64,000 nucleotides of DNA from Candidatus Omnitrophota bacterium (GTDB taxonomy: Bacteria; Omnitrophota; Gorgyraeia; Duberdicusellales; 4484-171): NCBI GenBank assembly GCA_021735655.1, contig JAIPGM010000003.1:32001-96000 (forward strand), given 5' to 3'. The number at the start of each line of letters is the position of its first letter. Positions within the stretch are counted from its first letter, which is position 1. The notes below the pieces were generated by a model that worked only from the letters and a program-made list of their open reading frames with translations, made no database searches and had not been told where the DNA came from. The position numbers and the translations under genes are program-made. Below are positions 1,849 through 53,903 of the stretch, one piece after another.

Positions 1849-1887
1849 GTTTACAAATAGGATTTTTGGCTAGAGAAAGGAGTAATA

Positions 1888-3087: not shown

Positions 3088-3115
3088 AGGTTGAGGATAG
3101 TAAGAAGGATTTAAA

Positions 3116-5171: not shown

Positions 5172-5181
5172 GGTTAAAACA

Positions 5182-6381: not shown

Positions 6382-6393
6382 AAGGAGTAGTCT

Positions 6394-7434: not shown

Positions 7435-7448
7435 AAGAGAGGTTTATT

Positions 7449-8111: not shown

Positions 8112-8122
8112 GATGTAATTAA

Positions 8123-9262: not shown

Positions 9263-9263
9263 T

Positions 9264-13051: not shown

Positions 13052-13061
13052 TAGTGTTGTT

Positions 13062-26490: not shown

Positions 26491-26501
26491 AGCTTTAAAT
26501 A

Positions 26502-28435: not shown

Positions 28436-28448
28436 TAAGGAGTAGACA

Positions 28449-37239: not shown

Positions 37240-38598
37240 ATGTTTTTTAAACCGAGAAAGAAAAAAGCATTTGTTATTGGCCTAGATTGTGCTCCGCCGA
37301 GACTTCTCTTTGATAAATTTAAAGATGAGCTGCCTAATTTCAAGATGATGCTAGATAAAGGGGTTCATTGTCCTATGCGTTCAGTGCATCCGCCGATTAC
37401 AATTCCAGCCTGGATGAGCATGTGCTCTGGCTTGGATGTTGGCGAGATTGGCGTTTATGGGTTTAGAACCCGAAAAGATAATTCTTATACAGAATTTGAT
37501 ATCTCTACTTCTAAAAAGTTTTCTCAAATCGATAAGATTTGGGATATTTTAGCAAAATTAAAAAAGAAAAGTGTTCTTGTAGGTGTTCCTCCAAGTTACC
37601 CAACTTATCATATTGATGGAGGTATGATTTCGGGATTTATTTGTCCTGACGCAGCCAGTAATTTTACTTATCCTGAAAGCTTAAAGGGTGAAATTGAAGA
37701 GTTAGTTGGAGAATATAAACTTGATGTGGTGTTTAGAACCGAAGATCGAGATAAGCTAATAAAATCTGCCTGGGAGATGACCGAGAAGAGATTCAAGGTT
37801 ATTGAGTACTTAATAAAAAATAAACAGTGGGATTTTTTTATGTTCGTTGAGATTGGCGTAGACAGAATTCAGCATGCTTTTTGGAAATATTATGATCCGT
37901 CACACCATCTTTATCAACCTGAGCATAAGTATAAAAACGTCATTTTCGATTACTATAAATTTATTGATCAAAAAGTTGGAAAGATTCTTTCAGTTTTGGA
38001 TAAAGATACTACTGTTTTTACAGTATCCGATCACGGGGCAAAGTCAATGAAAGGAGTTTTTTGTCTTAATGAATGGCTTATTGATAAAGGTTATTTAGTG
38101 TTAAATAAATATCCTGATAAGATAGCCAGCTTCAATCAGCTAGATGTTGATTGGCAAAAAACTCGGGCCTGGGGTTGGGGAGGCCATTGTGGAAGGATTT
38201 TTATTAATAAAAAGAACCGCGAAACTCAAGGGTTAGTTAGAGATTCTGAATATGAGAGTTTGCGCGACGGTCTAATTAAGGAGTTAGAAAATGAAACCGA
38301 TCCTTTAGGTAAACCTTGGAATACGAAAGTTTATAAGCCTAAGGATGTCTATAAAGTGTTAAATGGAACCCCTTCGGACCTTGTGGCTTATTTTGATGAC
38401 TTAGCATATAGGGGTGCAGGTACCGTAGGGCATAAAAAGATTTTTCTAGAAGAAAACGATACTGGTCCTGACGATGCCGCACATGATTGGCAAGGTGTAT
38501 TTATTGAGTATAGTCCTTTAAGTAAAAGTGCAGAAGAATTAAACCAAATAAGCATCCTTGATTTCAAAGATAGAGTATTAAAGAGCATGGGAATATGA
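37240..38598 (+). CDS. Alkaline-phosphatase-superfamily enzyme, type I phosphodiesterase/nucleotide pyrophosphatase (NPP, PF01663-like)
   Basis: VIGLDCAPPRLL...VHPPITIPAWMSMCSGLDVGEIGVYGF is comparable to the NPP nucleophile region (PTxTFPNHYxxVTGLYPESHGI). A distal metal-site motif VSDHGA is also present. Confidence 0.55.
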   Translation: MFFKPRKKKAFVIGLDCAPPRLLFDKFKDELPNFKMMLDKGVHCPMRSVHPPITIPAWMSMCSGLDVGEIGVYGFRTRKDNSYTEFDISTSKKFSQIDKIWDILAKLKKKSVLVGVPPSYPTYHIDGGMISGFICPDAASNFTYPESLKGEIEELVGEYKLDVVFRTEDRDKLIKSAWEMTEKRFKVIEYLIKNKQWDFFMFVEIGVDRIQHAFWKYYDPSHHLYQPEHKYKNVIFDYYKFIDQKVGKILSVLDKDTTVFTVSDHGAKSMKGVFCLNEWLIDKGYLVLNKYPDKIASFNQLDVDWQKTRAWGWGGHCGRIFINKKNRETQGLVRDSEYESLRDGLIKELENETDPLGKPWNTKVYKPKDVYKVLNGTPSDLVAYFDDLAYRGAGTVGHKKIFLEENDTGPDDAAHDWQGVFIEYSPLSKSAEELNQISILDFKDRVLKSMGI

Positions 38599-39668
38599 AA
38601 TCATTTTTAATTATTAATCCTTTTGGTATCGGTGATGTTTTGTTTTCTACACCGTTGATAAGGAACATTAAGGAAAACTTGCCTGAAAGTAAGATTTTCT
38701 ACCTTTGCAATCGACGCGCCCAACCGATTCTAGAAAATCACCCCTTAATAGATAAGTGTTTTATCTATGAAAGGGATGAATTCGAAGCCATAAGAAAGAG
38801 ATCAAAGATAAGCTGGTTTAAAAAAATATTAAGTTTTATATCTGAAATAAAAAAAGAGAAAATTGACGTTGCTTTAGACCTGTCTTTAAATCCGCAATTT
38901 GGATTTTTATCTTTTATTGCCGGGATAAAAGAGCGAGTTGGTTATGATTATAAACGGCGGGGTCGATTTTTAACTAAAAAAATTAAGTTTTCCGGCTATA
39001 AGGATAAACATGTCATTGAATATTACCTTGATCTTCTAAAATACATTAATTTAGAACCAATTCATCGAAAAACCGAGCTATTTTTGAGTAAAATAGATAA
39101 AAACAAGTTAGATCTTTGGCAAAGATATAATTTATCTGAAACTAATTTAAATATAGTTATAGCGCCTTGTGGCGGTGCAAGTTGGGGTTTAGAGGCAGGT
39201 TATAAACATTGGAACCTTGAGAAATTTGCTCAGCTAGCCGATAGAAGTATAAGCGAGCTTAAAGCTAGAGTAATCTTAGCCGGCAGTAGACAGGAAAAGG
39301 AAGCCATTGAAAAGGTTGAACGGTTAATGAGCAATAAGCCTCAGAAAGCGATCGGTCTAGAACTTGAAGATTTCCTTGCTATCTTAGCCAAAAGTCAGCT
39401 GGCAGTAGTCAATGACGGTGGAGTATTGCATATGGCCGTAGCCTTGGGGATTAAAACTGTATCTATCTTTGGTCCGGTCAATGAAGTAGTCTATGGGCCT
39501 TACCCGATTGATTCTAGTAAGCATGTTGTGCTTAAGGTTGATATAGGTTGTCGGCCGTGCTATGTAAATTTTCGTTTGCCAGAATGTGTTTATAATAAAA
39601 AATGTTTGAACGATCTCGAAGTCAGTGAAGTTTTTAAAGCGGTTAAGTCTTTAATGGATAAAAAATAG
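38595..39668 (+). CDS. GT9 glycosyltransferase (LPS heptosyltransferase family)
   Basis: IINPFGIGDVLFSTPLIRNIKENLPESKIFYLCN... and a C-terminal GGVLHMAVALGIKTVSIFGP motif. Confidence 0.8.
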   Translation: MKSFLIINPFGIGDVLFSTPLIRNIKENLPESKIFYLCNRRAQPILENHPLIDKCFIYERDEFEAIRKRSKISWFKKILSFISEIKKEKIDVALDLSLNPQFGFLSFIAGIKERVGYDYKRRGRFLTKKIKFSGYKDKHVIEYYLDLLKYINLEPIHRKTELFLSKIDKNKLDLWQRYNLSETNLNIVIAPCGGASWGLEAGYKHWNLEKFAQLADRSISELKARVILAGSRQEKEAIEKVERLMSNKPQKAIGLELEDFLAILAKSQLAVVNDGGVLHMAVALGIKTVSIFGPVNEVVYGPYPIDSSKHVVLKVDIGCRPCYVNFRLPECVYNKKCLNDLEVSEVFKAVKSLMDKK

Positions 39669-39696
39669 TCTGAAGTTAATTTAATAATTTAAGCTA

Positions 39697-41565
39697 ATGG
39701 ATATTTTTATTATTGGAATATTGTGGGCTGCGGCGACTTTTTTTCTTTTTGGGGTCATTGTTGGGATAGGAATAAGTTTTCTAAATAGGTTTAATTTTTC
39801 CTTTATTGGAAACCTATGGTTTTATTTTCTGACCGGCCTTTCCTATATAGCTTATTTAGGCGTAAGAATTATACCCTTGGCTGGTTTGTTGGGATTAATA
39901 TTGGAGGGGTTGCTTGGCATATCAAGATCTGCAGTTATTTTAGTATATCTTGGCTGCACGATTAATCTTCTGACTTACTTTTTTGCCAAATGGTATATTA
40001 CTGGAAAAGAAATACCCTCGACCGTCATAAGTTTCATCCCGGTGGTTCTTTTGGTAATTTTTCGTGAAAGTTTTTCATTGAAAATTATTACTTCTTTGGG
40101 TGCGGTTTGGCTGAGCTTAGTAATTTCAATTAGCTTTCTGGCAGCTTTAATAAGAACTTTTTTTCGTAAGAAAACTACTGGCCAAAAAAGCCAAATTAAA
40201 CCTAATAATTCTTTAAAGCCGGAAGTCAACCAGGTTAATAAAAAAGTAGCTTTTATAGGATTAGATGGTTGCGATTGGCAGTTATTAAAGAGATTTATAG
40301 ATCAAGGTAAATTGCTTACTTTCCGAAGGCTTATTGACGGGGGGGCGTCAGCTAGGCTTAAAACTATTCAGCCGACTCTCTCGCCTTTAATTTGGAACTC
40401 TATACTTACTGGCAAATCGCCTTCCGATCACGGTATCGCCCATTGGTATAAAACTAAATTTCCCCTTCTGCCTCCAGTCGTAGGGGATATTGTCCATCCG
40501 CGCTATTGCCGTTCGAAGCGGATTATTTTATGGTTAATAAAGAAAAATCTGATTAGAAGAATTCCTTTTTCAACCGAGGATAGAGGAGTTAAGGCCATTT
40601 GGAATATATTATCTGATTACGATAAGAGCTCTATTAACGTAGGGTGGATTTTTAGCTGGCCAGCTGAAAAGATTAGGGGGGTTCAGGTAAGTTGGCTTTT
40701 TTATCCTTTTGAGGAGGCAGCTCAAGGTTTTAAAAGATTTAGCTCAAGCAAATTGCCTCAAAGAGTCTATCCGGAAAGTCTATTTGCTGATCTTGAGCGT
40801 TTCATTGTTAGGCCTTCTGATTTAGCCGATGCTGAGTTACGCAGTATGCATTTTACAACCGAAAGTATTAATCCTGAGAAACTTTATGTTGATAAGTTAA
40901 GTCCCTGGGATTATACTAAAGACAAAACTTTTTTACAGGTTAGCAGTTATTTGCTCGACCAAAATAAAGAGTTTGATTTTTTCTCTTTATATCTTTATGG
41001 AATTGACGCCGTTTGTCATAATTACTGGCCATTTTCTAAAGATGCAAGCAACAATCAAAAGCATAAAAACGAGCTACTTTCAGTTAGCGACAGCGAAAAA
41101 TTTAAAAAAGAGGCTGAATCGTTTGATAAATGTATTTTGCGTTATTATGAATATTTAGATAGTGAAATTGCTAAACTTTTAAGTAAGCTTGGTCAAGATT
41201 GCAATATAGTCATAGCTTCTGACCACGGATTTAATTTAGACGGTAGTGAACATGAGAATGCCCCCGATGCGGTGTTGATTGCTTATGGACCTTATATCGC
41301 TAAGGGTAAAAACTTAAGTTCTCTTTCGATATATGATGTTTTGCCTACGGTTTTATGCTTGTTGGGCTTACCATTGGCAAATGATATGCCGGGCAGGGTA
41401 GCTAAGGAGTTGTTTAGCGATCAATTTTTGAATGCTTTTCCTTTTAACTATATTGATAGTTACGAACACACTAGCGATAAGTTAAATGATAGGAGCTTTA
41501 AATTGGATGAGGCTAGCCGCAAAGGTATAGAAGAACGCCTTAGGTCCTTAGGTTATATAGATTAA
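39697..41565 (+). CDS. Membrane-anchored alkaline-phosphatase-superfamily (NPP-type) enzyme
   Basis: About 170 aa of N-terminal TM helices, then VAFIGLDGCDWQLL...PTLSPLIWNSILTGKSPSDHGIAHW and ASDHGF. It is a paralogue of the 37240 gene. Confidence 0.55.
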   Translation: MDIFIIGILWAAATFFLFGVIVGIGISFLNRFNFSFIGNLWFYFLTGLSYIAYLGVRIIPLAGLLGLILEGLLGISRSAVILVYLGCTINLLTYFFAKWYITGKEIPSTVISFIPVVLLVIFRESFSLKIITSLGAVWLSLVISISFLAALIRTFFRKKTTGQKSQIKPNNSLKPEVNQVNKKVAFIGLDGCDWQLLKRFIDQGKLLTFRRLIDGGASARLKTIQPTLSPLIWNSILTGKSPSDHGIAHWYKTKFPLLPPVVGDIVHPRYCRSKRIILWLIKKNLIRRIPFSTEDRGVKAIWNILSDYDKSSINVGWIFSWPAEKIRGVQVSWLFYPFEEAAQGFKRFSSSKLPQRVYPESLFADLERFIVRPSDLADAELRSMHFTTESINPEKLYVDKLSPWDYTKDKTFLQVSSYLLDQNKEFDFFSLYLYGIDAVCHNYWPFSKDASNNQKHKNELLSVSDSEKFKKEAESFDKCILRYYEYLDSEIAKLLSKLGQDCNIVIASDHGFNLDGSEHENAPDAVLIAYGPYIAKGKNLSSLSIYDVLPTVLCLLGLPLANDMPGRVAKELFSDQFLNAFPFNYIDSYEHTSDKLNDRSFKLDEASRKGIEERLRSLGYID

Positions 41566-42436: not shown

Positions 42437-42456
42437 GACATATATGAGTAAATGTG

Positions 42457-42485
42457 TTGCCAATACATTATAAATTGGTTAATAT
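42457..42485 (+). promoter_or_regulatory. Candidate sigma70-type promoter for the downstream cupin-aminotransferase-GT2-rSAM-ArnT-like operon
   Basis: -35 TTGCCA at 42457-42462, a 17-nt spacer, then -10 TAATAT at 42480-42485. It lies in the only sizeable intergenic region of this part of the locus. Confidence 0.4.
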
Positions 42486-42495
42486 AAGGAATTTA

Positions 42496-42590
42496 ATCCC
42501 TCGCAGAAATACCCGGGCTTTAGCCCGAGGGATGAATGCTCTTTTAGGATTTCTGCTCGGGAGGAAGCCCCCGGCCTTTTAGTCCGGGGA
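42496..42590 (+). promoter_or_regulatory. GC-rich structured 5' leader with mutually exclusive helices (candidate attenuator or riboswitch-like element)
   Basis: Helix 1: ATCCCTCG (42496-42503) pairs with CGAGGGAT (42526-42533), enclosing an inner GGGC-TTTA-GCCC hairpin. Helix 2: CCCCGG (42569-42574) pairs with CCGGGG (42584-42589). Alternative pairing: GCAGAAAT (42503-42510) is the exact reverse complement of ATTTCTGC (42549-42556) and extends imperfectly to CCCTCG/TCGGGAGG. This alternative competes with helix 1 or forms a pseudoknot. The element sits between the candidate promoter and the RBS/ATG at 42619. Confidence 0.4.
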
Positions 42591-42618
42591 GTCTTCACAA
42601 ATAAAAGAGAGGTAATTT

Positions 42619-43071
42619 ATGAAAGAACGCATAGAACATAAAGGTGAACTTTTAGGCCTTATTATAAGAGGAGACTATAATCCTTCTCAGACTGAGTTTT
42701 TTACACCTAATGAATTTAAGCAACAGGTTGGATATATATTTTACGATACCGGTCAGGAGGTGGCAGCTCATATTCATCATAATATGCCGCGTAGCCTTGA
42801 GGGTACTTCTGAAGTTTTAATTCTTAAAACCGGCCATGCCCGGATTGATTTTTATTCTCAAGATAAACAATATTTAGAAAGCCGGGAGATATTTCCCGGT
42901 GATATTATTATTTTAGTTTTTGGTGGGCATGGTATTCATTTTTATGAACCAAGTTTACTTCTGGAAATAAAACAAGGTCCTTATATCGGAGTTCAGGAAA
43001 AGGAAAGGTTTCCCTCGGCTTACCCAGAGCAAGAAAAGCTAAAGAAGGATGGTGAACCATTATCCCCGTAA
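42619..43071 (+). CDS. Cupin-fold protein (possible NDP-sugar ketoisomerase, FdtA/QdtA-like)
   Basis: 150 aa with a VAAHIHHNMP...E and ...VFGGHGIHF two-motif cupin signature. It lies immediately upstream of a DegT aminotransferase, the arrangement seen for 3,4-ketoisomerase/transaminase pairs. Confidence 0.4.
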   Translation: MKERIEHKGELLGLIIRGDYNPSQTEFFTPNEFKQQVGYIFYDTGQEVAAHIHHNMPRSLEGTSEVLILKTGHARIDFYSQDKQYLESREIFPGDIIILVFGGHGIHFYEPSLLLEIKQGPYIGVQEKERFPSAYPEQEKLKKDGEPLSP

Positions 43072-43079
43072 ATGAACCA

Positions 43080-44222
43080 TTGCTGCCGGGCAATGAATTA
43101 AAGTACGTTTCCGAGTGTCTTAAGACTAATTGGATTTCTTCTTCTGGCAGTTTTCTTGAGCGTTTCGAATCCGAATGGGCAAAGTATTGCGGTCAAAAAT
43201 ATGGTATTGCTGTTTGTAACGGAACGGTTGCTTTAGAGTTAGCTGTAGATGCTTGCAATTTTCCTAAGGGAAGTGAAATAATTCTACCTAGTTTTACTAT
43301 TATTTCTTGCGTCCAGGCGGTTACTAAAGCTGGTTGTAAGCCAGTGCTTGTTGATTGTGATTCGGAAACTTACTGTATGCAAGTAAGCCGGATAGAAGCA
43401 AAAATTACTGACCGGACCGTGGCAATTATGCCGGTACATATGTACGGACATCCAGTTGAAATGAAGCCAATAATGGACATTGCTCAGAAACACGGTCTTG
43501 TTGTTATTGAAGATGTGGCTCAGACCCAGGGAGGTGAATATCGAGGAAAAAAATGCGGTAGTTTTGGTAAGCTTTCCTGTTTTTCATTCTATGCAAATAA
43601 AAATATAACTACTGGCGAAGGAGGTATGGTTTTAACCTCTGATACTGTAATTGCTCAACGTTTGCGTAAGCTCAAAAATCTTTGTTTTTTAAAATCACCA
43701 AGATTTTTGCATTACCGGCTAGGCTATAACTATCGAATGACTAATATCCAAGCTGCTTTAGGCTTAGCCCAATTAGAGAATATCGATAGGTTCATTGAAC
43801 GTAAAATTGACATGGCCAAAAAGTATTCGCAGGCCTTAGTAAATTTACCGCTTCAATTACCTATGGAGCATAAATGGGCCAAGAATGTTATTTGGATGTA
43901 TAATGTGCTCCTTAAGGAAGATAAACAAAGCCAGGAGTTTTTTGAAAAAGACTGGAAAAATATAAGTCCAGAAGAGTATTTTAGATGGCCGGCATACAAG
44001 CTAATGAAAGTTTTAGAGCAGGCTGGAGTACAAACTCGTCCCTTTTTTATTGGAATGCATGAGCAGCCTGTGTTTCATGAGCAGGGGCTGTTTAAGGGTG
44101 AGAGATACCCGGTTACTGAAAAAATTGCTCGTTCTGGTTTTTATCTTCCTAGTGGCCAAGCGATAACTGATTTTCAGATAGATGAAGTTTCGCGAGCTTT
44201 AAAGGAGATATTTAATGAATAA
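43080..44222 (+). CDS. DegT/DnrJ/EryC1 family PLP-dependent aminotransferase (ArnB-like)
   Basis: CNGTVALELAV, DVAQTQG, and SFYANKNITTGEGG with the PLP Lys. Apparent TTG start at 43080. Confidence 0.75.
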   Translation: MLPGNELKYVSECLKTNWISSSGSFLERFESEWAKYCGQKYGIAVCNGTVALELAVDACNFPKGSEIILPSFTIISCVQAVTKAGCKPVLVDCDSETYCMQVSRIEAKITDRTVAIMPVHMYGHPVEMKPIMDIAQKHGLVVIEDVAQTQGGEYRGKKCGSFGKLSCFSFYANKNITTGEGGMVLTSDTVIAQRLRKLKNLCFLKSPRFLHYRLGYNYRMTNIQAALGLAQLENIDRFIERKIDMAKKYSQALVNLPLQLPMEHKWAKNVIWMYNVLLKEDKQSQEFFEKDWKNISPEEYFRWPAYKLMKVLEQAGVQTRPFFIGMHEQPVFHEQGLFKGERYPVTEKIARSGFYLPSGQAITDFQIDEVSRALKEIFNE

Positions 44223-44967
44223 ACATTTATCACTTTCAGTAATTTTGCCTACTTACGATGAGGCTGAAAATATAAGACCTTTGATAGAAAGCATAGCTGA
44301 GGCCACTGAGCATCTTCAGGAAATAATAGTTGTTGATGATGATTCTCCTGATGGGACGGCTGATGTTGTTGAAGATATGATCGAAAGCGGAAAATACCCT
44401 TTTCTAAAACTGGAAAGAAGGCTTAAAAACCCTAGCTTAAGAAATAGTATTTGGAGAGGCATAGAGCTAGCTAGCGGAGATACTGTTGGCTGGATGGATT
44501 GCGATTTTTCCATGCCACCTAGATACTTTCCGGTACTTCTATCTTTAGTAAATGCAGATTATGATATAGCTTTAGGTTCTCGTTTTGTTTTAGGGGGTAC
44601 TTGGAGAGAAGAAACTTTGGAGGATTCAGATACGATTTTAGCGGCTTCAGGTAGCAGGCTGATGAATTTTTTTATTCAGATTTTTCTTGACCACAGAGTT
44701 AGGGATTATACCAGTGGTTTTGTAGTTGCCCGGCGCGATATTTTTAAACGGATTAAATTAAGGGGTGATTATGGTGAGTATTTCATTGATTTTATATATC
44801 GGGCCTTAAAGTTAAGGTATCGGGTGGTTGAAATTCCCTATGTTTGGGCTTCCAGAAGAAGGGGATATTCTAAAACAGGTAATAACCTTAAGGATTATTT
44901 TAAGCGAGGAAGAAAGTATATAGCTACAGTCTTGCGTTTGTTGCTTACGCGAAATTATGAATATTAA
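44215..44967 (+). CDS. GT2 polyprenyl-phosphate sugar transferase (ArnC/DPM1-like)
   Basis: LSVILPTYDEAENIRPLIESIAEATEHLQEIIVVDDDSPDGT. The short soluble GT2 form is typical of Und-P/Dol-P sugar synthases. Confidence 0.65.
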   Translation: MNKHLSLSVILPTYDEAENIRPLIESIAEATEHLQEIIVVDDDSPDGTADVVEDMIESGKYPFLKLERRLKNPSLRNSIWRGIELASGDTVGWMDCDFSMPPRYFPVLLSLVNADYDIALGSRFVLGGTWREETLEDSDTILAASGSRLMNFFIQIFLDHRVRDYTSGFVVARRDIFKRIKLRGDYGEYFIDFIYRALKLRYRVVEIPYVWASRRRGYSKTGNNLKDYFKRGRKYIATVLRLLLTRNYEY

Positions 44968-46396
44968 AAAAAATATGAAACCTAAAGTTTTATTAATTAG
45001 TCCTCCTTTTGAGCATGAAGAAGAGTCAGTAGGCAAAACTAAAAGCATTATAAAGGTGTTAAATATTGTGCCGCCTTTAGGGATTGCTTATATTGCTGCG
45101 GTTTTAGAAAGAATCGGGATAGAAGTAAAAATAGTCGATTGTGCTACCGGAATTTCTTTCGACAGTCTTTTTAATAGCATAAAAATAGAATCTCCGGATG
45201 TAGTTGGTCTCACAGTTACTACTCCGGCATTTCTCAAAGCCAAAAAGGTAGCAGCTTTTGTCCGAAAAAATCTTCCTCAAGCAAAGATTTTGATCGGAGG
45301 CGCTCAGGTAACAGCTTTACCTAAAGAGACCCTAGAGACCGGTCTTTTTGATATTGGAATAATCGGTGAGGGAGAGTTAATTATTGAGCAGTTATTTAAA
45401 AATTATAAAAATGAAGGATTTGAGAATTTAAAAGAAGTTCCTGGTATTATTTATAGAGATGATCAAGGCATTCATCAAAATGAAAAACAGGCTTTTGTTG
45501 AGGATTTAGATTCTTTACCACTCCCGGCAAGGCATCTTTTGCCACATCCTAAATTTTATCGTCCTACTCCAGCTTCTTGTCGTAAAGTCCCTTATGTTGT
45601 GATTATGACTTCTCGTGGTTGTCCTTCAAAATGTACTTTTTGTGATCGAAAAATATTCGGTGAACGCTGCCGGATGAGAAGTGTAGCTAATATTTTTGAA
45701 GAGATAGAAGAGGTAGTATCAAAATATGGAGTAAAAGAGATAAGGTTTTTTGATGATACTTTTACTTTGGATAAAAAAAGAGTTTATAAAATTTGCGATG
45801 AATTTGAAAAGCGAAAACTTAAGCTTGCTTGGACCTGTCTTACCAAAGCAGCCTGCGTGGATGGTCCGCTACTAAAGCGAATGAGGCAGGTTGGTTGTTG
45901 GCAAGTTTTATATGGTTTTGAATCTGGTGATGACCGAGTCCTCAAACTGCTTAAAAAAGGCAATACTGTAGAGTTGAACAAAAGAGCAGTTCGTTTGACT
46001 AAAGAAGCTGGCCTTGAAGTGAGAGGGGATTTTATCGTTGGAACCCCTGGTGAAACTTGGGAGAGTTTAGAGAGAACCGTGCGTTTTGCTATAGATATGG
46101 ATTTAGATTACGCCCATTTTAATAAATTCATACCTTTTCCGGGAACAGAATTGTACCAGAATCTTAGGCAGCAGGGATATTCTTTTGATTTTTCTAAGAG
46201 TACTATATTAGACCACACTCAAATTCATTATGTTAATGAAGGTATGACTGCGGAGGGGTTTTCTCGATTTTTAGATAAAGCTAATAAAAGGTTTTACTTA
46301 AGATGGAAATATATATTAAAAAGACTATTTTCTATCCGAACTTTTCACCAGTTAAAAGGCCAAATAAACGGATTTTTTGCTATTTTTGAGATTTAA
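44957..46396 (+). CDS. B12-binding-domain radical SAM enzyme (class B rSAM, methyltransferase-like)
   Basis: N-terminal cobalamin-binding-like Rossmann domain (KVLLISPP...LGIAYIAAVLERIGIEVKIVDCATG), then CPSKCTFCDRK (CxxxCxxC) and a rSAM core. Confidence 0.75.
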   Translation: MNIKKNMKPKVLLISPPFEHEEESVGKTKSIIKVLNIVPPLGIAYIAAVLERIGIEVKIVDCATGISFDSLFNSIKIESPDVVGLTVTTPAFLKAKKVAAFVRKNLPQAKILIGGAQVTALPKETLETGLFDIGIIGEGELIIEQLFKNYKNEGFENLKEVPGIIYRDDQGIHQNEKQAFVEDLDSLPLPARHLLPHPKFYRPTPASCRKVPYVVIMTSRGCPSKCTFCDRKIFGERCRMRSVANIFEEIEEVVSKYGVKEIRFFDDTFTLDKKRVYKICDEFEKRKLKLAWTCLTKAACVDGPLLKRMRQVGCWQVLYGFESGDDRVLKLLKKGNTVELNKRAVRLTKEAGLEVRGDFIVGTPGETWESLERTVRFAIDMDLDYAHFNKFIPFPGTELYQNLRQQGYSFDFSKSTILDHTQIHYVNEGMTAEGFSRFLDKANKRFYLRWKYILKRLFSIRTFHQLKGQINGFFAIFEI

Positions 46397-47897
46397 AATG
46401 AAAAAAGACGTTGTTTTAATTTTACTTTGTTTTTTTGCAGTGGTAATCCTATTTACTAATTTAGGAGGCACCTATCTTTGGCAAGATGAAGCCACAACCG
46501 CAGTTTTAGGTAGGAACACGTTAAACTTTGGAATCCCTAAGGCTTTTGATGGAAAAAATCTTATTCTCAACATCTATGAAGATCCTTGTGTCGATAAGGG
46601 TTGGAAGTATGCTCCCTGGCTTCAATTTTATCTTGTGGCTGGATCATTTTGGTTATTAGGAGAAACCACCTTTGCTGCTCGCTTGCCTTTTGCTATATTT
46701 GGCGTTGGTGCTTTACTGTTGTGCTTTTTATTGGCCGAGCGGCTGTTTAAAAATAGATTAGTTTCAAGAATTGCTTGCGCCTTCATGGCTTTTTCCAGTA
46801 TTTTTTTCCTCTATATGCGTCAAGCCAGGTGGTATCCACTTACCACTTTTTTCACCCTTTGGCTGCTAGTTTCGTACTTAGATTTAGTCAAAAGTAAGAA
46901 GAAAGCTATTTTAGGTTTTGTGCTTAGCGCTGTATTACTTTTTCACTCTAATTACGGAATTTTCTTTTCCGTATTCTTAGGTCTAGCTTCTCATTTCTTT
47001 ATTTTTAACAGAAGTAACATTAAGGCGATTGGGATAAAAAAGATAGTATTTTGTCTTTTTATGATTACCATATTAACTTTACCTTCTTTATTGTATCTTG
47101 GTAGTGTGGAGTATAGCGGAAAGATAACCTTCGAGCGGACAGAGGACCATTTAGAATTCTATTTTCGTTCACTTAATAAGTATATTTTTCCTGTAGGATT
47201 TTTATTCTTCAGTTTAACTTTTTTTAGCTTCTTTAGGAAAAAAGTTTTTCCAATATTGGGCAAACCGTTAGATAAGCAAAACCTTTGGCTTTTGATTTGT
47301 GTATTTATTTCTACTATTTGTTTTCTTCTTTTGGCCGATGAGAGGCAATTAAGATATCTCGTGCATTTATTGCCAATTTTTTCTATTATCCTAGGAGTTT
47401 TAATTGTCGGATGGTTAAAGATAAATAAAATAGCTGCGGTTTTACTTTTTGTTATTATTTGTTTTACAAATATATTTAATCGGGGAAGTTTCTCTCATAA
47501 TAAACTATCGATTCATCCGGTTAATATAGTTTATGAATTAACCCATGATTATGACGGTCCGGTAGAAGGAATAGTAAAGTTTTTAAATCGCCAGGCAAAG
47601 CCAACAGATACGGTTAAGCTAATTTATGGTGATTATGCTACGATTTTTTATACTGATCTTCGTGTCGACAATAGTTGCTTTAAGTGTAAAACCTTTCCAG
47701 AATGGATTGTTATCAGAGATGGTTGGTTTCCTTTGAAGAATTTAGACAAAGATTATCTTAGAGAGATAAATGAGAGATATCAAAAAATAATACTGGATTA
47801 TCCTGACATAATGTGGGAGAATCGGCCCGACCCTGGTTATCATAAATTCAAAACAGTATCAGATTGGCCGCCGGTTGTAATATATAAGAAAAAATGA
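46377..47897 (+). CDS. ArnT/PMT-family GT-C glycosyltransferase (GT39/GT83-like)
   Basis: LLCFFAVVILFTNLGGTYLWQDEATTAVLGRN in the first periplasmic loop carries the conserved DE-type motif of ArnT/PMT. Multiple TM helices are followed by a C-terminal soluble domain. Confidence 0.7.
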   Translation: MLFLRFKMKKDVVLILLCFFAVVILFTNLGGTYLWQDEATTAVLGRNTLNFGIPKAFDGKNLILNIYEDPCVDKGWKYAPWLQFYLVAGSFWLLGETTFAARLPFAIFGVGALLLCFLLAERLFKNRLVSRIACAFMAFSSIFFLYMRQARWYPLTTFFTLWLLVSYLDLVKSKKKAILGFVLSAVLLFHSNYGIFFSVFLGLASHFFIFNRSNIKAIGIKKIVFCLFMITILTLPSLLYLGSVEYSGKITFERTEDHLEFYFRSLNKYIFPVGFLFFSLTFFSFFRKKVFPILGKPLDKQNLWLLICVFISTICFLLLADERQLRYLVHLLPIFSIILGVLIVGWLKINKIAAVLLFVIICFTNIFNRGSFSHNKLSIHPVNIVYELTHDYDGPVEGIVKFLNRQAKPTDTVKLIYGDYATIFYTDLRVDNSCFKCKTFPEWIVIRDGWFPLKNLDKDYLREINERYQKIILDYPDIMWENRPDPGYHKFKTVSDWPPVVIYKKK

Positions 47898-48966: not shown

Positions 48967-49974
48967 ATGAAGAGAATTGGAATTATCGGTTGTGGACATT
49001 GGGGCCCGAATTATCTGCGTAATTTTAGTCAGTTAGAAGATTCATCAGTATTAGTTTGTTGTGACTTATCAAAAGATAATTTAGATAAGGTTAAGAAACA
49101 CTACAGATCGATAGAGGTTGTTGAAGATTACAAGGATGTGCTTAGGGACAAGCGTATTGATGCGGTTGTCATTGCTACTCCTGCTCGAACTCATTATAAA
49201 ATCGCTAAAGATGCACTTTCAGCCGGTAAGCATATTTTATTAGAAAAGCCAATGGCTTTAAACTATGCAGATTGTAAAAAGTTGGTCAATTTGGCAAAAG
49301 AAAAGAAAAGAATCCTTATGGTTGGTCACACTTTTTTGTTTAATCCGGCTGTAAGAAAGTTGAAGGATTATATAAAAAAAGGTGCTGTGGGAAAGATTTA
49401 TTATTTGCATGCAACCAGGACACATTTAGGTTTAGTCCGTAACGATGTAAATGTGAGTTGGGATTTAGTACCACATGATATATCTATATTTTCTTATTTA
49501 TTAGGAGAAATGCCGATTAGTGTTTCAGCTTTGGGCGGATCCTTTTTGAGAAGTCCGAAACAAGATGTAGTGTTTATTAATTTAATTTACCCGAAGGGTA
49601 TAATTGCTAATATTCATGCTAGCTGGGCCGATTCCAATAAGGTTAGAGAAATTCAGGTAATCGGCAGTCGGGCCAGAGTGGTTTTTGATGATTTAAATAG
49701 TATGGAAAAGATAAAACTGTACAAGAAAGGAATATCTGTAGATAAGTCATATGCCAATTTTGGTGAATTCCAATTACTTTTAAGAGACGGCGATATTCTT
49801 AGTCCCAAAATTGGTCCCGAGGAACCGCTACGACTTCAATGCCAACATTTTTTAAACTGTCTTAAAAACGGAAAGAAGCCATTTGTTGATGGAGAAGACG
49901 GTGCGAGTGTTGTTAAGATAATGAATGCAATAAATAAATCTTTAGTATTGGGAGCTAGGGTGGTTAAAGTATGA
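48967..49974 (+). CDS. Gfo/Idh/MocA family NAD-dependent sugar-nucleotide oxidoreductase (WbpB/GnnA-like)
   Basis: MKRIGIIGCGHWGPNYL Rossmann start and a central EKPMA motif. Confidence 0.75.
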   Translation: MKRIGIIGCGHWGPNYLRNFSQLEDSSVLVCCDLSKDNLDKVKKHYRSIEVVEDYKDVLRDKRIDAVVIATPARTHYKIAKDALSAGKHILLEKPMALNYADCKKLVNLAKEKKRILMVGHTFLFNPAVRKLKDYIKKGAVGKIYYLHATRTHLGLVRNDVNVSWDLVPHDISIFSYLLGEMPISVSALGGSFLRSPKQDVVFINLIYPKGIIANIHASWADSNKVREIQVIGSRARVVFDDLNSMEKIKLYKKGISVDKSYANFGEFQLLLRDGDILSPKIGPEEPLRLQCQHFLNCLKNGKKPFVDGEDGASVVKIMNAINKSLVLGARVVKV

Positions 49975-50579
49975 AAACGAAGAATTTCTTAATTGGAAAA
50001 AATTCTAAAATTGATAAATCGGTAATCTTAGGTGAGAAAACAGGCAGGAAAATTAAGATTTCAAAGACGATTATCGGAAAAGATGCAAGGGTAAGGTCAA
50101 ATACGGTTATTTATTCAAATACTAAGATTGGCGATGGATTGGAGACAGGGCACAATGTTGTGATTCGCGAACAAAACAAAATCGGCAATAATTTAAGTAT
50201 TTGGAATAACTCTACCATTGATTATGGATGTGAAATTGGCAATAATGTTAAGATCCACGCCAATACTTATGTAGCTCAGTTTACTGTCATTGAAGATGAT
50301 GTTTTTCTAGCTCCCGGGGTAATGATTGCAAATGATCCTCATCCTATCTGTACAAAATGCATGAAAGGCCCATTAATAAAAAAAGGGGCACGGATCGGGG
50401 TGAATGTTACGCTTTTACCTAATATTGTAATTGGGGAAAATTCTTTAGTTGGAGCCGGCAGCGTTGTCACTAAGGATGTTGCGGCTAACGTGGTAGTTTT
50501 TGGCTCACCGGCAAAAGTAGGCGGAAGAATTAAAGATTTAAAGTGCAAAGCAAGAATAAAGGATAGAGCCTATGAGTAA
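49971..50579 (+). CDS. Hexapeptide-repeat N-acetyltransferase (WbpD-like)
   Basis: Repeated [LIV]-G-x4 hexapeptides throughout ([31 protein letters not shown]...[13 protein letters not shown]...). Confidence 0.75.
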
Positions 50580-51693
50580 TAATAAGATGAACGTTCCTTT
50601 TGTGGATTTACAGATTCAATATCGTAAGTTGAGCAAGGAAATCAATCAACGGTTAATTGAAACAGTTGAAAGCGGTTCTTTTATTTTAGGTGAAAGTGTT
50701 CAAAAGTTTGAGCAGGAATTTGCTAATTATTGTGGCGCAAAACATGCTGTAGGTATTGCTTCGGGAACTGCTGCTTTATTTTTGTCTCTAAAAAGCTTAG
50801 GAGTCGGCAGGGGAGATGAAGTAATTACTCCGGCAAATACATTTATTGCAACAGCCTTAGCTATTTATTATACCGGAGCAAAGATTATCTTAGTAGACAT
50901 AGATGAAGAAACCTATAATTTAGATATAAAAAAGACAGAAGCGGTAATAAATAGCAAAACCAAAGCTATCCTACCAGTGCATCTTTATGGTCAACCGATA
51001 GATTTAGAGCCTTTACTTGCTTTAGCTAAGAAACACAACTTAATAGTTGTTGAGGATGCTTGCCAGGCTCACGGTGCTGAATATAAAGGCAAAAAGGTGG
51101 GAGGATTCGGTAACGCTGCAGCCTTTAGCTTTTATCCTGGTAAAAATTTAGGTGCTTTTGGTGATGCCGGTATAGTAGTGACTAACGATGAAAAGGTTAA
51201 AGATGAATTGATCATGTTGAGAAACTATGGCCAGAAACAAAAGTATCATCATTTAGTAAAAGGGTATAATTCTCGTTTAGATACAATTCAGGCAGAAATA
51301 TTGAGAGTTAAGCTTGGCTATTTAGACCAATGTAATGAAGAGCGAAGAAAAAGTGCTCAAGTTTATAAAACCTTGCTTCAAAGCATCAGTGACCGTATCT
51401 TAATTCCTAAAGAAATGTCATCAGTAAAACATGTTTGGCATCTTTATGTAATTAGGGCAGAAAAAAGAGATGACTTACAGGAATATCTTAAAAAGGCAGG
51501 GATTAGTACCGGTATACATTATCCTATTCCGATTCATTTGCAGCCGGCTTTTTCTGATTTAGATTATAAGAAGGGAGACCTTCCTGTTACAGAAAAGACT
51601 GCTGATCAGATTCTTTCTTTGCCGATGTACCCAGGGTTAAAAGAAGAGCAAATTGAATATGTTGTGAAAAAAATAAGTGATTTTTTGCAGTAA
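50572..51693 (+). CDS. DegT family aminotransferase (WbpE/GnnB-like)
   Basis: [29 protein letters not shown], and [15 protein letters not shown] with the PLP Lys. Confidence 0.8.
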
Positions 51694-51709
51694 GCAACCT
51701 AGTTGATAA

Positions 51710-52807
51710 ATGAAGCTATTTTTTAAATCTTGGCAGAAAAAAAGTAAAAAGAAGAGAATTCTTTTTGCTGGAGTCTGCCATGCTAATTTCATACAGTTTA
51801 GGCCAATTTATGAGATCCTTAAGCAGGATCCAAGAGTTGAAATTTTATTCTCTGGTATGTATCAAAGTAAAGACCGGCCGCGTGAACTCTATAAACCTTT
51901 TAATATAGATAAGAAATTCATCATAAGAGAAAAGTTCGCAAAAACTTTGAGTTTTGACATCTATATTAGCCCAGATTATCACATGATTGACAATAACTAT
52001 TCTTCAACTATTCAGTTTTTTCACACCACTTCTTTTAGAAATTTCTCAGTTAGTGAAGAGGCAAAAAGCTTTGATCAGATTTTTTTAATTGGGCCGTACA
52101 TGAAGCGTAAGTTTATCGAGGCAGGTATTTTTGAAGTTGATGATCCGAGATTAAAAGAAGTAGGCATGCCGCAAACAGATGCTCTTTTAGATAATATCGA
52201 CACTGGTTTGTCTGAGAGACTTGGCTTAGATAAGAGTCTTCCGACTATACTTTACGCTCCAGTCTGGGCGCCGATAGAGAGCTTTCTTGAAGATGTTCAA
52301 ACAACACTTAAAACTTTAACCTCAATTAAGGCTAATCTTCTTCTTAAGTTGCACGATAAATTTTATTATCAACAGGTAAATAAAATTAGATGGCGGGAGT
52401 TTTTGAATTTGGTGCTAAGCGAGAATAAGAATGTACATTTAATAGATGATTTTGATATTATACCTTACATGAAAATTAGTGATTTGCTTGTCAGCGACGT
52501 TAGTGCTGTTGTACATCAGTTTTCTATATTAGATAAGCCAATAGTATGCATGAAGGTAGATGTTGATGAGTTTAAAAAGTTCTGGCCAGGGCTTGATCAT
52601 AAAGCCTATTTAGATCGCGCGGTAATAGAAGCTTCTCAAGGAGAGGCTTTAAAAGAGGCAGTTTTGGGAGAACTTGCTAATCCTGGCAATTTGAGTCAAA
52701 AACGGATAGCCATGAGTAAAGAGTATTTTTATAATATTGGGTTTTCTGCAAAATGCGCAGTTTCGCAAATTTATCAGTCTTTTAATCTAAAGAATACAGA
52801 TGAATAA
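51710..52807 (+). CDS. CDP-glycerol glycerophosphotransferase family protein (TagB/TagF-like)
   Basis: The TILYAPVWAP segment resembles the TagF-family ...LYAPT[WF]R core. It is followed by a GT-B-like C-terminal half. Confidence 0.5.
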   Translation: MKLFFKSWQKKSKKKRILFAGVCHANFIQFRPIYEILKQDPRVEILFSGMYQSKDRPRELYKPFNIDKKFIIREKFAKTLSFDIYISPDYHMIDNNYSSTIQFFHTTSFRNFSVSEEAKSFDQIFLIGPYMKRKFIEAGIFEVDDPRLKEVGMPQTDALLDNIDTGLSERLGLDKSLPTILYAPVWAPIESFLEDVQTTLKTLTSIKANLLLKLHDKFYYQQVNKIRWREFLNLVLSENKNVHLIDDFDIIPYMKISDLLVSDVSAVVHQFSILDKPIVCMKVDVDEFKKFWPGLDHKAYLDRAVIEASQGEALKEAVLGELANPGNLSQKRIAMSKEYFYNIGFSAKCAVSQIYQSFNLKNTDE

Positions 52808-53903
52808 AAAGCCGCTTTCCTCAAAAAATAGTTTCTTAGTTAAACTGAAAGTCAGCCAAGAAATCCTTATGGATGCCGAGCAAATAGCTATAGGTGGGTA
52901 CGCTCCAGTTGATGGTTTTATGGGAAAGGCTGACTTTGAATCAGTTTTGAATAATATGCGCCTTGTAAAAGGTGATGTTTGGACTTTGCCAATAGTGTTA
53001 GATATAAGTAAAAAAGAAGCAGCATCAATTAAAATCGGGGATGAAATATTGCTTGGTGACGGCCAGGATCAGGAAAATTTTCTTTTTTCTGTGGAAGATA
53101 TTTATGAACATGATAAATCTTTGTATTGCGATAAGGTTTATGGTACTAAAGATGTAGCTCATTCAGGAGTAGCAAAGGTGCTTAAGATGGGAGAGGTCCT
53201 TGTAGGGGGCCGGGTTATATCGGTTTTAAATAATTTTGATTTTGATATGCGTAAATTCACCATGACCCCGAAAGAGACAAAAGCCCAGTTTGAAAAAAAT
53301 AATTGGAAAACGGTTGTTGCTTTTCATACCCGGAATGTGGTGCACAGAGCCCATGAGTATCTTCAGCGCTGTGCTATGGAATATGCCGATGGAATTTTGA
53401 TCCATCCTGCGGTTGGCTTTACAAAACCCGGTGATTTCAAGAAAGAGCTTATAATAAAGGGCTATCAAAGTTTAATTGATAACTATTATCCAAAAAATAA
53501 AGCTCTTCTCTCGGCTTTGGGCATAGGCATGAAATTTGCCGGGCCAAGAGAAGCTGTATTTCATGCCTTGGTGCGGAAAAATTATGGTTGTACACATATA
53601 ATTATTGGTAGAGATCATGCTGGCGTAGGCGGATACTATGAGAAGTATGCCGGACATAAGATATTTTCTAGTTTGCCATCTTTGGGCATAACCCCTTTAT
53701 TATTTAAGGGACCGTTTTATTGCAATAAATGTGAAGCTATGGCTACCGAAAGCACCTGCTCGCATGATGAGTCTTATAGGTCAGAAGTCAGCGGAACATT
53801 AGCTCGTAAATTCATAAAGGAAAAGAAAAAGCTCCCTAAGTGGCTGATGCGTCCTGAAATCGCAAACTTGCTTGAAGACCTCGGTGAAAGCGTTTTTTCT
53901 TAA
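52800..53903 (+). CDS. sat: Sulfate adenylyltransferase (ATP sulfurylase)
   Basis: FHTRNVVHRAHEYL (QTRN...HRAH motif) and IIIGRDHAGVGGYY (GRDHAG motif) are diagnostic of ATP sulfurylase. No APS-kinase domain is fused or adjacent. Confidence 0.8.
   Translation: MNKKPLSSKNSFLVKLKVSQEILMDAEQIAIGGYAPVDGFMGKADFESVLNNMRLVKGDVWTLPIVLDISKKEAASIKIGDEILLGDGQDQENFLFSVEDIYEHDKSLYCDKVYGTKDVAHSGVAKVLKMGEVLVGGRVISVLNNFDFDMRKFTMTPKETKAQFEKNNWKTVVAFHTRNVVHRAHEYLQRCAMEYADGILIHPAVGFTKPGDFKKELIIKGYQSLIDNYYPKNKALLSALGIGMKFAGPREAVFHALVRKNYGCTHIIIGRDHAGVGGYYEKYAGHKIFSSLPSLGITPLLFKGPFYCNKCEAMATESTCSHDESYRSEVSGTLARKFIKEKKKLPKWLMRPEIANLLEDLGESVFS

Follow-up and report, generated by a model that had tools for sequence, protein, structure and literature searches.

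A candidate cassette for lipid-carrier delivery of an amino sugar, built around a B12-domain radical SAM enzyme, in an Omnitrophota genome

Surface glycans of uncultured bacteria are represented here by a 64,000-nt stretch of a Candidatus Omnitrophota genome (assembly GCA_021735655.1, contig JAIPGM010000003.1, positions 32,001 to 96,000 of the forward strand), referred to below as the window. At 42619-47897, five consecutive plus-strand genes encode a small cupin, a DegT/DnrJ/EryC1-family aminotransferase, a short family 2 glycosyltransferase (GT2), a radical S-adenosylmethionine enzyme with a B12-binding domain (rSAM) and a polytopic membrane glycosyltransferase of the GT-C type. These five open reading frames (ORFs), their positions and their strand had been given in a first-pass annotation and are confirmed; neighbors overlap or are separated by no more than 9 nt. 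With a probability of roughly 75%, the five genes make up one cassette that decorates an envelope glycoconjugate with an amino sugar delivered on a lipid carrier. This system-level reading rests on the tight packing, the polyprenyl-phosphate and A-loop residues kept in the GT2, the ArnT-like fold of the GT-C protein, the recurrence of GT2, DegT and rSAM as a triad, the correlated distance matrices of these three proteins, and the GT-C enzymes that accompany them in other genomes.

Evidence for a lipid-carrier cassette

Assignment of the short GT2 to the polyprenyl-phosphate sugar synthases, as the first-pass annotation had proposed, is supported by both profile and residue comparisons. A family profile made from 12 cassette orthologues matched the dolichol phosphate mannose synthase (DPMS) of P. 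furiosus (5mlz) over the whole catalytic domain at 8.6e-56, ahead of ArnC (6e-25) and GtrB (5e-22). In the P. furiosus enzyme (PfDPMS), Arg117 and Ser135 form the acceptor-phosphate site while Glu12, Arg202 and Lys208 make up the A-loop lock (PMC5526996). The corresponding residues of the cassette protein (R123, S147, E16, R214 and K220, respectively) are invariant in all 12 orthologues, as is D95-x-D97, which aligns with the DXD aspartates Asp89 and Asp91; the Asp39 equivalent is conserved and the Gly122 equivalent is found in 11 of the 12. Positions that contact the donor have fared differently. In the DxDLQ motif, both the metal and the beta-phosphate are coordinated by Gln93, and the GtrB motif reads DADLQD (PMC5526996). 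This glutamine is present in both PfDPMS (DADLQH) and ArnC, whereas every one of the 12 cassette proteins has Ser, Ala or Thr in its place. In addition, the His94 position is variable, Arg131 is kept in six of the 12, the window protein having Ala instead, and HMMER puts a Glu at Lys178, where the alignment is ambiguous. Taken together, the acceptor machinery appears to be retained while the donor-contact positions differ, so the donor sugar is probably not plain mannose. Unlike type III DPMS, GtrB and ArnC, the 250-residue protein was found to have no hydrophobic segment or C-terminal transmembrane anchor. Human DPM1 is of a comparable soluble type. The comparisons therefore support a polyprenyl-phosphate hexose synthase of the DPMS-like type.

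The GT-C protein was described beforehand as ArnT/PMT-like, and ArnT is indeed its best match by both profile and structure. Its score against Pfam PMT_2 lies just under the cut-off of 26.1 bits, most of its relatives have a precomputed PF13231 match, and the NCBI entry with which it shares 100% identity, a Ca. Omnitrophica protein, is annotated as GT39. The only PDB match of a profile built from 18 family members was ArnT (5ezm, 7e-10). The AlphaFold2 (AF2) model, with a predicted local distance difference test score (pLDDT) of 82 and a predicted template modeling (TM) score of 0.87, has ArnT (5f15) as its top Foldseek match (9e-8, TM score 0.58). The 40 top PDB matches are all GT-C enzymes and, after ArnT, include ALG9/12, PglB, STT3, DPY19, Emb/Aft and Pmt4. 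Immediately after the first transmembrane helix, a W28-x-D30-E31 motif is invariant in 18 of 18 family members and is found also in paralogues from the Desulfobacterota; judging from the model, the loop bearing D30 and E31 would face outward, and the C-terminal domain is predicted to be soluble. The window protein is a full-length homologue of the two Desulfobacterota paralogues, each of about 570 residues and Pfam-negative, that belong to the cassettes of that phylum. Checks for a GT2 lacking the synthase hallmarks and for a GT-C falling among unrelated families thus both came out in favor of the initial assignments.

The DegT protein may be taken as an aminotransferase rather than a dehydratase by the criterion used for this family, in which a catalytic lysine marks the former and a histidine the latter: all 56 cassette DegT proteins compared have the pyridoxal phosphate-binding lysine in the motif SFYANK-NITTGEGG. 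Its best PDB match is GDP-perosamine synthase (3bn1, 2e-81), with ArnB much further away (7e-45), and its best NCBIfam match is the LegC family at 308 bits against a cut-off of 420. Consequently, neither the aminotransferase nor the GT2 is well described as ArnB or ArnC, the counterparts first suggested for them; both stand nearer to enzymes of GDP-mannose pathways, namely perosamine synthase and DPMS.

The fold of the first gene product is better established than its family. Pfam and PDB sequence searches gave nothing significant, and the sole family match is TIGR04366 (WbuC cupin) with an E-value of 9e-4. The AF2 model (pLDDT 84), by contrast, has a cupin fold, with 256 Foldseek matches at E<=1e-3; the 50 listed are all cupins and comprise generic metal cupins, CapF and phosphomannose isomerase. 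The cupin call thus stands on fold, though not on a significant Pfam or PDB sequence match. The protein belongs to a family of about 235 members, every one of which is labeled 'hypothetical', and its His51, His53, Glu65 and His104 are invariant. A homologue adjoins the cassette in eight of the 83 loci compared below, archaeal ones included, and relatives of about 45% identity lie directly upstream of DegT in clusters without the rSAM gene. One such cluster also has two 4,6-dehydratase-type short-chain dehydrogenase/reductase (SDR) genes and a hexapeptide acetyltransferase, a context that resembles the pathways of the FdtA/QdtA ketoisomerases. The suggestion that the cupin is a ketoisomerase therefore gains from its position beside DegT but not from its fold, as FdtA and QdtA were absent from the 50 listed matches. 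The cupin is best regarded as an accessory gene for which a role as sugar isomerase or epimerase is plausible.

The composition of the cassette was assessed by searching one genome per species for relatives of the rSAM protein, which returned 249 genomes, of which 80 loci were fetched. Neighborhoods were compared in 83 loci by unbiased clustering of genes within 7 kb, and the triad was defined as orthologous GT2, DegT and rSAM genes together. Identity is 53-92% among the 120 best database matches of the rSAM, which span several phyla, and falls to about 40% at the lowest among the fetched genomes, all 80 of which are metagenome-assembled genomes (MAGs) or single-cell genomes. The bacterial loci come from Omnitrophota, the Planctomycetota/PVC group, Desulfobacterota, Elusimicrobia, Verrucomicrobiota, Myxococcota, Anaerolineae and Gaiellales; the archaeal loci come from Bathy-, Woese-, Nano-, Alti- and Hydrothermarchaeota and from Methanosarcinales. 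As a neighbor of the rSAM gene, DegT ranks first (54 of 83 loci), followed by the GT2 (44), small rSAM proteins of the SPASM type (23) and the GT-C family of the window (15), with GT9-like (14), class I methyltransferase (10) and cupin (8) genes less common. The triad is complete in 29 of the 83 loci and spans at least eight bacterial and archaeal phyla, with Omnitrophota, Desulfobacterota, Chloroflexi, the PVC group and several phyla of archaea among its carriers. The full order of cupin, DegT, GT2, rSAM and GT-C is repeated in two further Omnitrophota MAG loci (L008 and L010), and variations of it occur in four others (L009, L012, L013 and L015). With the gene order recurring in Omnitrophota MAGs and the triad recurring across phyla, the arrangement is not one of chance. 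The rSAM gene had been viewed at the outset as an insertion into an Arn-like module. This view is rejected, for the rSAM is the most conserved element of a cross-domain cassette from which the Arn-specific genes are absent.

Membrane glycosyltransferases usually accompany the triad, also where the family of the window is not used. Among 56 polytopic membrane proteins encoded within 2.5 kb of the rSAM gene, 24 match PMT_2 and one only is Wzx-like; the others include matches to ALG9-like, GT87, YfhO, PTPS-related and STT3 proteins. The archaeal and Anaerolineales cassettes that were checked are flanked by PMT_2, ALG9-like, GT87/PIG-M-like or YfhO GT-Cs, and the mannose-utilizing families among the flanking GT-Cs use polyprenyl-phosphate-mannose donors. 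In a MAG labeled 'Chloroflexi' (L006) the order is PMT_2 GT-C, GT2, DegT, rSAM and methyltransferase. Finally, the distance matrices of DegT, GT2 and rSAM are correlated (Mantel r 0.75-0.82), which fits inheritance or transfer as a block.

A window so rich in glycan genes invites the simpler explanation that the five are merely neighbors in a one-strand surface-glycan island of about 58 kb, each serving another glycan. About 50 glycan genes lie on the same strand of the window, including several sugar pathways, four other DegT genes and many glycosyltransferases. In Desulfobacterota, however, the triad, together with two paralogous GT-Cs and a methyltransferase, forms a stand-alone cassette amid unrelated housekeeping genes, with nirS-type cytochrome genes on one side and serA/hisS on the other; a GT-C is part of this block in some cases and missing in others. 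The triad is also found in archaea, and its three proteins co-vary. Chance adjacency within a glycan island was rejected on the strength of the stand-alone Desulfobacterota cassette, and mere neighborhood is very improbable.

The radical SAM enzyme and the proposed pathway

The rSAM protein clearly exceeds the Pfam cut-offs for both of its domains (32 bits for PF02310 and 29.5 for PF04055; scores in Table 1) and carries the cluster motif CPSKCTFC. All 79 sequences compared keep the three cysteines of the CxxxCxxC motif (C222, C226 and C229) as well as C294 and C314, while C280 is kept in 71 of the 79. The C294 and C314 motifs are common to AprD4, and OxsB is without them. An auxiliary Fe-S cluster was considered for these two, or perhaps three, additional cysteines (C294, C314 and C280) and rejected, since they are shared with AprD4 and the evidence is insufficient. 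AprD4 is not known to carry more than one Fe-S cluster.

Comparison with named families places the protein nearest to enzymes that are not methylases, at some distance. The NCBIfam scores and cut-offs are 224.7 and 577.6 bits for HpnJ, 207.9 and 481 for BchE, and 109 and 500 for AprD4, none of which is reached; models of methylases score 168 and 139 (P-methylases), 110 (HpnR) and 76 bits (KedN5). Among PDB entries, AprD4 is matched best (3e-34), over the radical SAM core only, whereas OxsB (9e-26) is matched over both domains. AprD4 is a diol dehydratase that converts a diol to a 4-oxo-3-deoxy sugar, and in BtrN and BtrS an rSAM dehydrogenase is already known to be partnered by a DegT enzyme. 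The chemistry of BchE, OxsB and HpnJ shows that B12-domain rSAM enzymes can have functions other than methylation. BchE, which is cobalamin-dependent, installs a ketone anaerobically (PMC13598231), and in AprD4 and ArsL the B12-type domain is cobalamin-free (PMC12931638).

With these relatives in mind, the pathway may be pictured as follows. A common nucleoside diphosphate (NDP)-hexose, most likely of the GDP-mannose type, would enter the cassette. The rSAM enzyme would abstract a hydrogen atom from the sugar to produce a carbonyl, either through oxidation or through an AprD4-like dehydration to a deoxy-keto sugar, and would thereby stand in for the NAD-dependent dehydrogenase or 4,6-dehydratase that is absent from the cassette. 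DegT could then transaminate this carbonyl, probably at C4, and in some genomes a class I methyltransferase may N-methylate the resulting amine; the cassette of the window has no such gene. The cupin would be an accessory sugar-modifying or sugar-binding protein, translationally coupled to DegT. At the cytoplasmic face of the membrane, polyprenyl phosphate would receive the sugar from the DPMS-like GT2, although in an alternative order rSAM and DegT may act on the sugar once it is lipid-linked. After being flipped across the membrane, the lipid-linked sugar would be transferred to an acceptor outside by the ArnT-like GT-C. The sugar itself may be of a mannose type, for instance one related to perosamine. 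This is inferred from three observations: the GT2 is nearest to DPMS, DegT is nearest to perosamine synthase and LegC (enzymes of GDP-sugars), and several families of partner GT-Cs use polyprenyl-phosphate-mannose.

That the rSAM supplies the carbonyl that feeds DegT is put forward tentatively, and it is slightly favored over C-methylation. Conventional amino-sugar operons normally keep a dehydratase or a dehydrogenase beside the aminotransferase. In 22 of the 29 triad loci, no SDR, GFO oxidoreductase or nucleotidyltransferase gene lies within 7 kb. Together with this absence, the carbonyl route is favored because no partner of the rSAM is as constant or as tightly coupled as DegT, because HpnJ, BchE and AprD4 are not methylases and two of them (BchE and AprD4) form ketones, because AprD4 has the same invariant cysteine motifs, and because BtrN and BtrS provide a precedent.

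The closest competitor, credible though somewhat less likely, has the rSAM as a cobalamin-dependent C-methyltransferase similar to GenK or GenD1. In that case the keto precursor would come from a housekeeping or distant NDP-hexose 4,6-dehydratase, and the steps from GT2 to GT-C would be unchanged. A sugar that is probably C-methylated, or else modified by another radical reaction, was also the expectation of the first-pass annotation, and no specific support for C-methylation emerged. The PF02310 score of 78 bits and the alignment of the N-terminal domain with the cobalamin domains of OxsB, TokK, CysS and MetH agree with methylation, as does the fact that most cobalamin-dependent rSAM enzymes are methylases. 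Ten cassettes have a class I methyltransferase, and in gentamicin biosynthesis an aminotransferase, an N-methyltransferase and a cobalamin-dependent rSAM C-methylase act on one sugar (PMC4340712). A GMD-like SDR, as a possible source of the precursor, is found 1.5-6 kb away in seven of the 29 triad loci. Nevertheless, the scores against the non-methylases HpnJ and BchE exceed those against all of the methylase models, and the other 22 cassettes are without a nearby source of keto sugar. The tight coupling of DegT and rSAM fits consecutive steps, though it is compatible with methylation too.

A second alternative, improbable by comparison, is another kind of radical rearrangement: either the contraction of a lipid-linked hexose ring into a cyclitol, as with HpnJ or Cds, or an epimerization in which a cysteine is the hydrogen donor. 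The product would be a lipid-linked amino-carbasugar or an epimeric amino sugar. No NCBIfam model scores higher than HpnJ, which has been proposed to remodel the lipid-linked glucosamine put on by the GT2 HpnI, while the invariant C294 and C314 could donate hydrogen atoms. Yet the score of 225 bits is far from the HpnJ cut-off of 578, an HpnK-like deacetylase is not present, and the invariant cysteines are common to the dehydratase AprD4. Ring contraction is made less likely still by the GT-Cs that dominate the neighborhood, because a cyclitol phosphate is no glycosyl donor and would not serve them.

Several points weigh against the proposed pathway and its carbonyl step. Every step is inferred, and no flippase was identified in the cassette. 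As characterized cobalamin-dependent rSAM enzymes are mostly methylases, it also counts that the N-terminal domain of the cassette enzyme aligns with true cobalamin domains and not with the cobalamin-free domain of AprD4. The enzyme falls 2- to 5-fold below the cut-offs of HpnJ, BchE and AprD4, and none of them is a close guide. With respect to the source of a keto sugar, three of the seven triad loci with a GMD-like SDR are archaeal, three SDR dehydratase/epimerase genes are present in other sub-clusters of the window, and a housekeeping 4,6-dehydratase elsewhere in the genome is possible. The loss of Gln93 and the lack of a membrane anchor leave the donor and the membrane association of the GT2 uncertain. 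Lastly, some Mantel correlation is expected for any genes with a common genome history.

As for the acceptor in this Omnitrophota genome, the candidates are the lipopolysaccharide (LPS) core, lipid A, O-antigen or another envelope glycan. The first three are suggested by the LPS-type GT9 heptosyltransferase-like and O-antigen-ligase-like genes that flank the cassette; there are no lpx genes in the window. Lipid A, the acceptor named first at the outset, does not hold as a general acceptor because archaea and a Chloroflexi genome have the cassette.

The survey of rSAM relatives also brought up three features outside the cassette of the window. One is a second subclade of the rSAM (L041, L053, L059, L062, L063, L068, L070-72, L075 and L077) without the DPMS-like GT2. 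Its DegT is distant and lies directly upstream; in 10 of 23 cases the DegT stop codon and the rSAM start share 4 nt (ATGA), and a SPASM rSAM often follows downstream; this subclade may represent a different pathway using the same DegT-rSAM pair. Another is a Cys-rich ORF of about 100 residues beside the rSAM in some ten loci (L017, L019, L020, L023, L027, L035, L050 at 9667-9981, L056, L073 and L083), which turned up when long gaps between DegT and rSAM were checked for a hidden gene. It has a weak match to PF03692 (CxxCxxCC, YkgJ-like) and may be a metal or Fe-S partner. The ORF was considered as a core member and set aside as accessory, being absent from the window and limited to those ten loci. 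The third is the presence, in several loci including L086, L009, L010 and L006 (14076-15593), of extra B12-domain rSAM paralogues, two to five per glycan cluster and about 30% identical to the cassette enzyme. Such paralogues suggest that surface sugars are extensively tailored by radical chemistry in these uncultured lineages.

Layout of the locus and the surrounding island

The window has a GC content of about 36%, and nearly all of its ORFs of at least 100 residues are on the plus strand. A large surface-glycan island extends from about 0.3 to 57 kb and is followed by the housekeeping genes xseA, pnp, ftsK and rodZ. Table 1 lists the features of the cassette and its immediate surroundings.

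Table 1. Features of the cassette, its leader and the gene that follows (positions in the window).
Feature	Coordinates	Strand	Remarks
Leader	42437..42618	+	183-nt intergenic region 5' of the cassette
Small cupin-fold protein, 150 aa	42619..43071	+	AF2 model and Foldseek; accessory member
DegT/DnrJ/EryC1-family PLP (pyridoxal phosphate) aminotransferase	43059..44222 (likely start)	+	PF01041 363 bits; called ORF 43080-44222, 380 aa; core
Short soluble GT2, 250 aa	44215..44967	+	98 bits; DPMS-like profile match; core
B12-binding-domain radical SAM enzyme, 479 aa	44957..46396	+	PF02310 78 bits, PF04055 96 bits; signature member
GT-C polytopic membrane glycosyltransferase, ~500 aa	46398..47897 (alternative TTG 46377)	+	PMT_2 25.8 bits
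Conventional GT2, 340 aa	47894..48916	+	PF00535 104 bits

The exact junctions depend on the choice of start codons. The rSAM gene was said to overlap both the GT2 and the GT-C genes; tight packing holds, while the overlaps do not hold for every start. If the GT-C begins at TTG 46377 the overlap is 20 nt, and if it begins at ATG 46398, as in the NCBI and Logan gene calls, a 1-nt gap is left. Similarly, the overlap of GT2 and rSAM vanishes if the rSAM begins at Met7. For DegT, the called start at TTG 43080 is probably wrong. A conserved N-terminus, TIIPVNEPL, is encoded upstream of this codon and downstream of an in-frame TGA (43053), and in that frame none of the five nucleotide changes relative to the 90%-related L008 locus alters the encoded residue; the situation in L012 is alike. 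Because of these two observations, the real start is likely a non-canonical ATT at 43059 (or ATC) that overlaps the stop codon of the cupin gene.

In the leader, a sigma-70-like site (TTGCCA-17-TAATAT) is located at 42457-42485. A scan for promoters and terminators gave no more sites than shuffled sequence, and this site alone is singled out because its hexamers are kept in L008; it may mark the start of the transcription unit. Just downstream (about 42495-42600), and upstream of the cupin gene, is a GC-rich, strongly structured insert of about 105 nt with a minimum free energy z-score of -2.2. Absent from L008 and unique within the window, the insert could be a small element, either mobile or regulatory. 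An Rfam scan of the whole window, supplemented by a permissive scan of the 183-nt leader, returned no match, and thus no cobalamin or other riboswitch.

At the other end, the conventional GT2 overlaps the GT-C stop codon by 4 nt. Its orthologues follow the GT-C in L008 and L011, and another lies about 6.7 kb downstream in L013; the gene is probably in the same operon, though not a core member. With respect to other records of this locus, an identical copy of the rSAM protein is encoded on a Logan contig, and an NCBI MAG named 'Candidatus Omnitrophica bacterium' encodes identical GT-C and cupin proteins on a contig of 279 kb.

Other sub-clusters of the island have features of their own. The set at 263-10025 contains a HisF/HisH-like pair, a CBS-domain nucleotidyltransferase, a dehydratase, a DegT and a cytidylyltransferase, then a 3-dehydroquinate-synthase-like gene and an SDR, and resembles the synthesis of legionaminic or another nonulosonic acid. 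At 12299-14018, a SPASM-domain rSAM enzyme comes directly after a class I methyltransferase in gene order. The genes at 23991-32498 (nucleotidyltransferase, NDP-hexose 4,6-dehydratase, metallo-beta-lactamase (MBL)-fold protein, DmpF-like acylating acetaldehyde dehydrogenase, HMGL/DmpG-type aldolase, thiamine pyrophosphate-dependent enzyme, epimerase and DegT) look like a pathway to a branched-chain amino sugar of the yersiniose type, which is unusual in a glycan cluster. Closer to the cassette, at 37240-41565, two genes of the type I phosphodiesterase/alkaline-phosphatase superfamily surround a GT9 heptosyltransferase II-like gene, with O-antigen-ligase-like, VanZ-like and MBL genes just upstream; this set may add phospho-substituents to the LPS core. 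Downstream of the cassette, at 48967-53903, a WbpB/WbpD/WbpE-like trio (GFO oxidoreductase, hexapeptide acetyltransferase and DegT) precedes a CDP-glycerol glycerophosphotransferase-family gene and an ATP sulfurylase, which gives a hint of 2,3-diacetamido sugars and of glycans carrying sulfate or glycerophosphate.

Relation to known systems and possible significance

The first-pass annotation compared the cassette to ArnB, ArnC and ArnT. The likeness to the Arn (PmrHFIJKLM) pathway is one of logic: both have a DegT aminotransferase, along with a GT2 for loading polyprenyl phosphate and a GT-C for transfer of the sugar outside the membrane. Among solved structures, ArnT stands nearest to the GT-C, and ArnC comes second for the GT2. 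Membership of the Arn families does not follow, as all equivalog cut-offs are missed 3- to 30-fold (ArnB NF008658, 200 against 631 bits; ArnC NF007986, 52.8 against 529; ArnT NF009784, 17.3 against 567). The absence of ArnA (the oxidative decarboxylase and formyltransferase) and of ArnD, already remarked upon for the five genes, holds across the 64-kb window, where a search of the ORFs of at least 100 residues turned up no domain of a formyltransferase, a UDP-GlcA decarboxylase or a polysaccharide deacetylase; the cassette is also without ArnE/F. It differs further from Arn in its core rSAM of the cobalamin type, in the resemblance of its GT2 and DegT to enzymes of GDP-mannose pathways, and in its occurrence in organisms without lipid A.

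A second group of relatives is formed by three-component systems such as GtrA/GtrB/GtrX, CsbB-GtcA-YfhO, PpgS-Rv3779, FlmF2-NaxD-FlmK and LgmABC. In these, a GT2 that synthesizes a polyprenyl-phosphate-linked monosaccharide and a GT-C decorate a pre-formed envelope polymer, and the PMT_2, YfhO and GT87 types of GT-C partner are seen at cassette loci as well. The sugars of these systems are common ones, unmodified or N-acetylated and sometimes later deacetylated, whereas the cassette has a built-in aminotransferase and rSAM; no GtrA- or GtcA-like flippase was seen in it. Among individual enzymes, DPMS proteins (P. furiosus DPMS and human DPM1) are the best relatives of the GT2, which like DPM1 is short and without a transmembrane helix.

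For the rSAM, the two-domain architecture is that of HpnJ, BchE, AprD4 and OxsB. AprD4 combines two traits of this group, acting on amino sugars as HpnJ does and making a ketone as BchE does. What sets the cassette enzyme apart from all four is its partners, namely DegT, a DPMS-like GT2 and a GT-C. In the BtrN/BtrS, DesI-DesII-DesV-DesVI and GenD1/GenS2/GenN pathways, an rSAM and a DegT enzyme, sometimes with an N-methyltransferase, act sequentially on one sugar or cyclitol. Those pathways, however, belong to the soluble secondary metabolism of Actinobacteria and Bacillus and are not coupled to a polyprenyl-phosphate synthase and a GT-C; BtrN and DesII, moreover, are not B12-domain enzymes. 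The cassette, then, works like Arn but is no arn operon: it has the GT2 and GT-C core of the three-component systems plus radical and transamination steps. Database labels of its members ('BchE', 'YgiQ', 'GT39' or 'hypothetical') are either generic or misleading, and in the literature on this gene combination or on Omnitrophota envelope glycans no account of the cassette and no characterized member were found.

Decoration by lipid-carrier monosaccharides, as in the Arn, Gtr, YfhO and PpgS systems, governs resistance to cationic peptides, phage receptors and the charge of the envelope. A conserved cassette with its own rSAM and aminotransferase would imply an undescribed lipid-linked amino sugar donor, one that would occur in many uncultured anaerobes among the Omnitrophota, the PVC group, Desulfobacterota, Chloroflexi and Bathy-, Woese- and Nanoarchaeota. 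Extending this to a horizontally spread anaerobe cassette, in which bacteria and archaea would share a radical route to a polyprenyl-phosphate-linked aminodeoxy sugar of the mannose type that diverse GT-Cs attach to envelope glycans or proteins, is bolder and rather doubtful. No reaction has been assigned to the large and well conserved rSAM family, which is closest to HpnJ and BchE, poorly understood cobalamin-type rSAM enzymes that are not methylases. Since its fixed partners, DegT and the DPMS-like GT2, hint unusually clearly at the substrate, the reaction is directly testable in vitro. If the radical route to the carbonyl is true, primary cell-surface sugars would be the target of a new class of B12-domain rSAM reaction, and a new lipid-linked donor would be defined.

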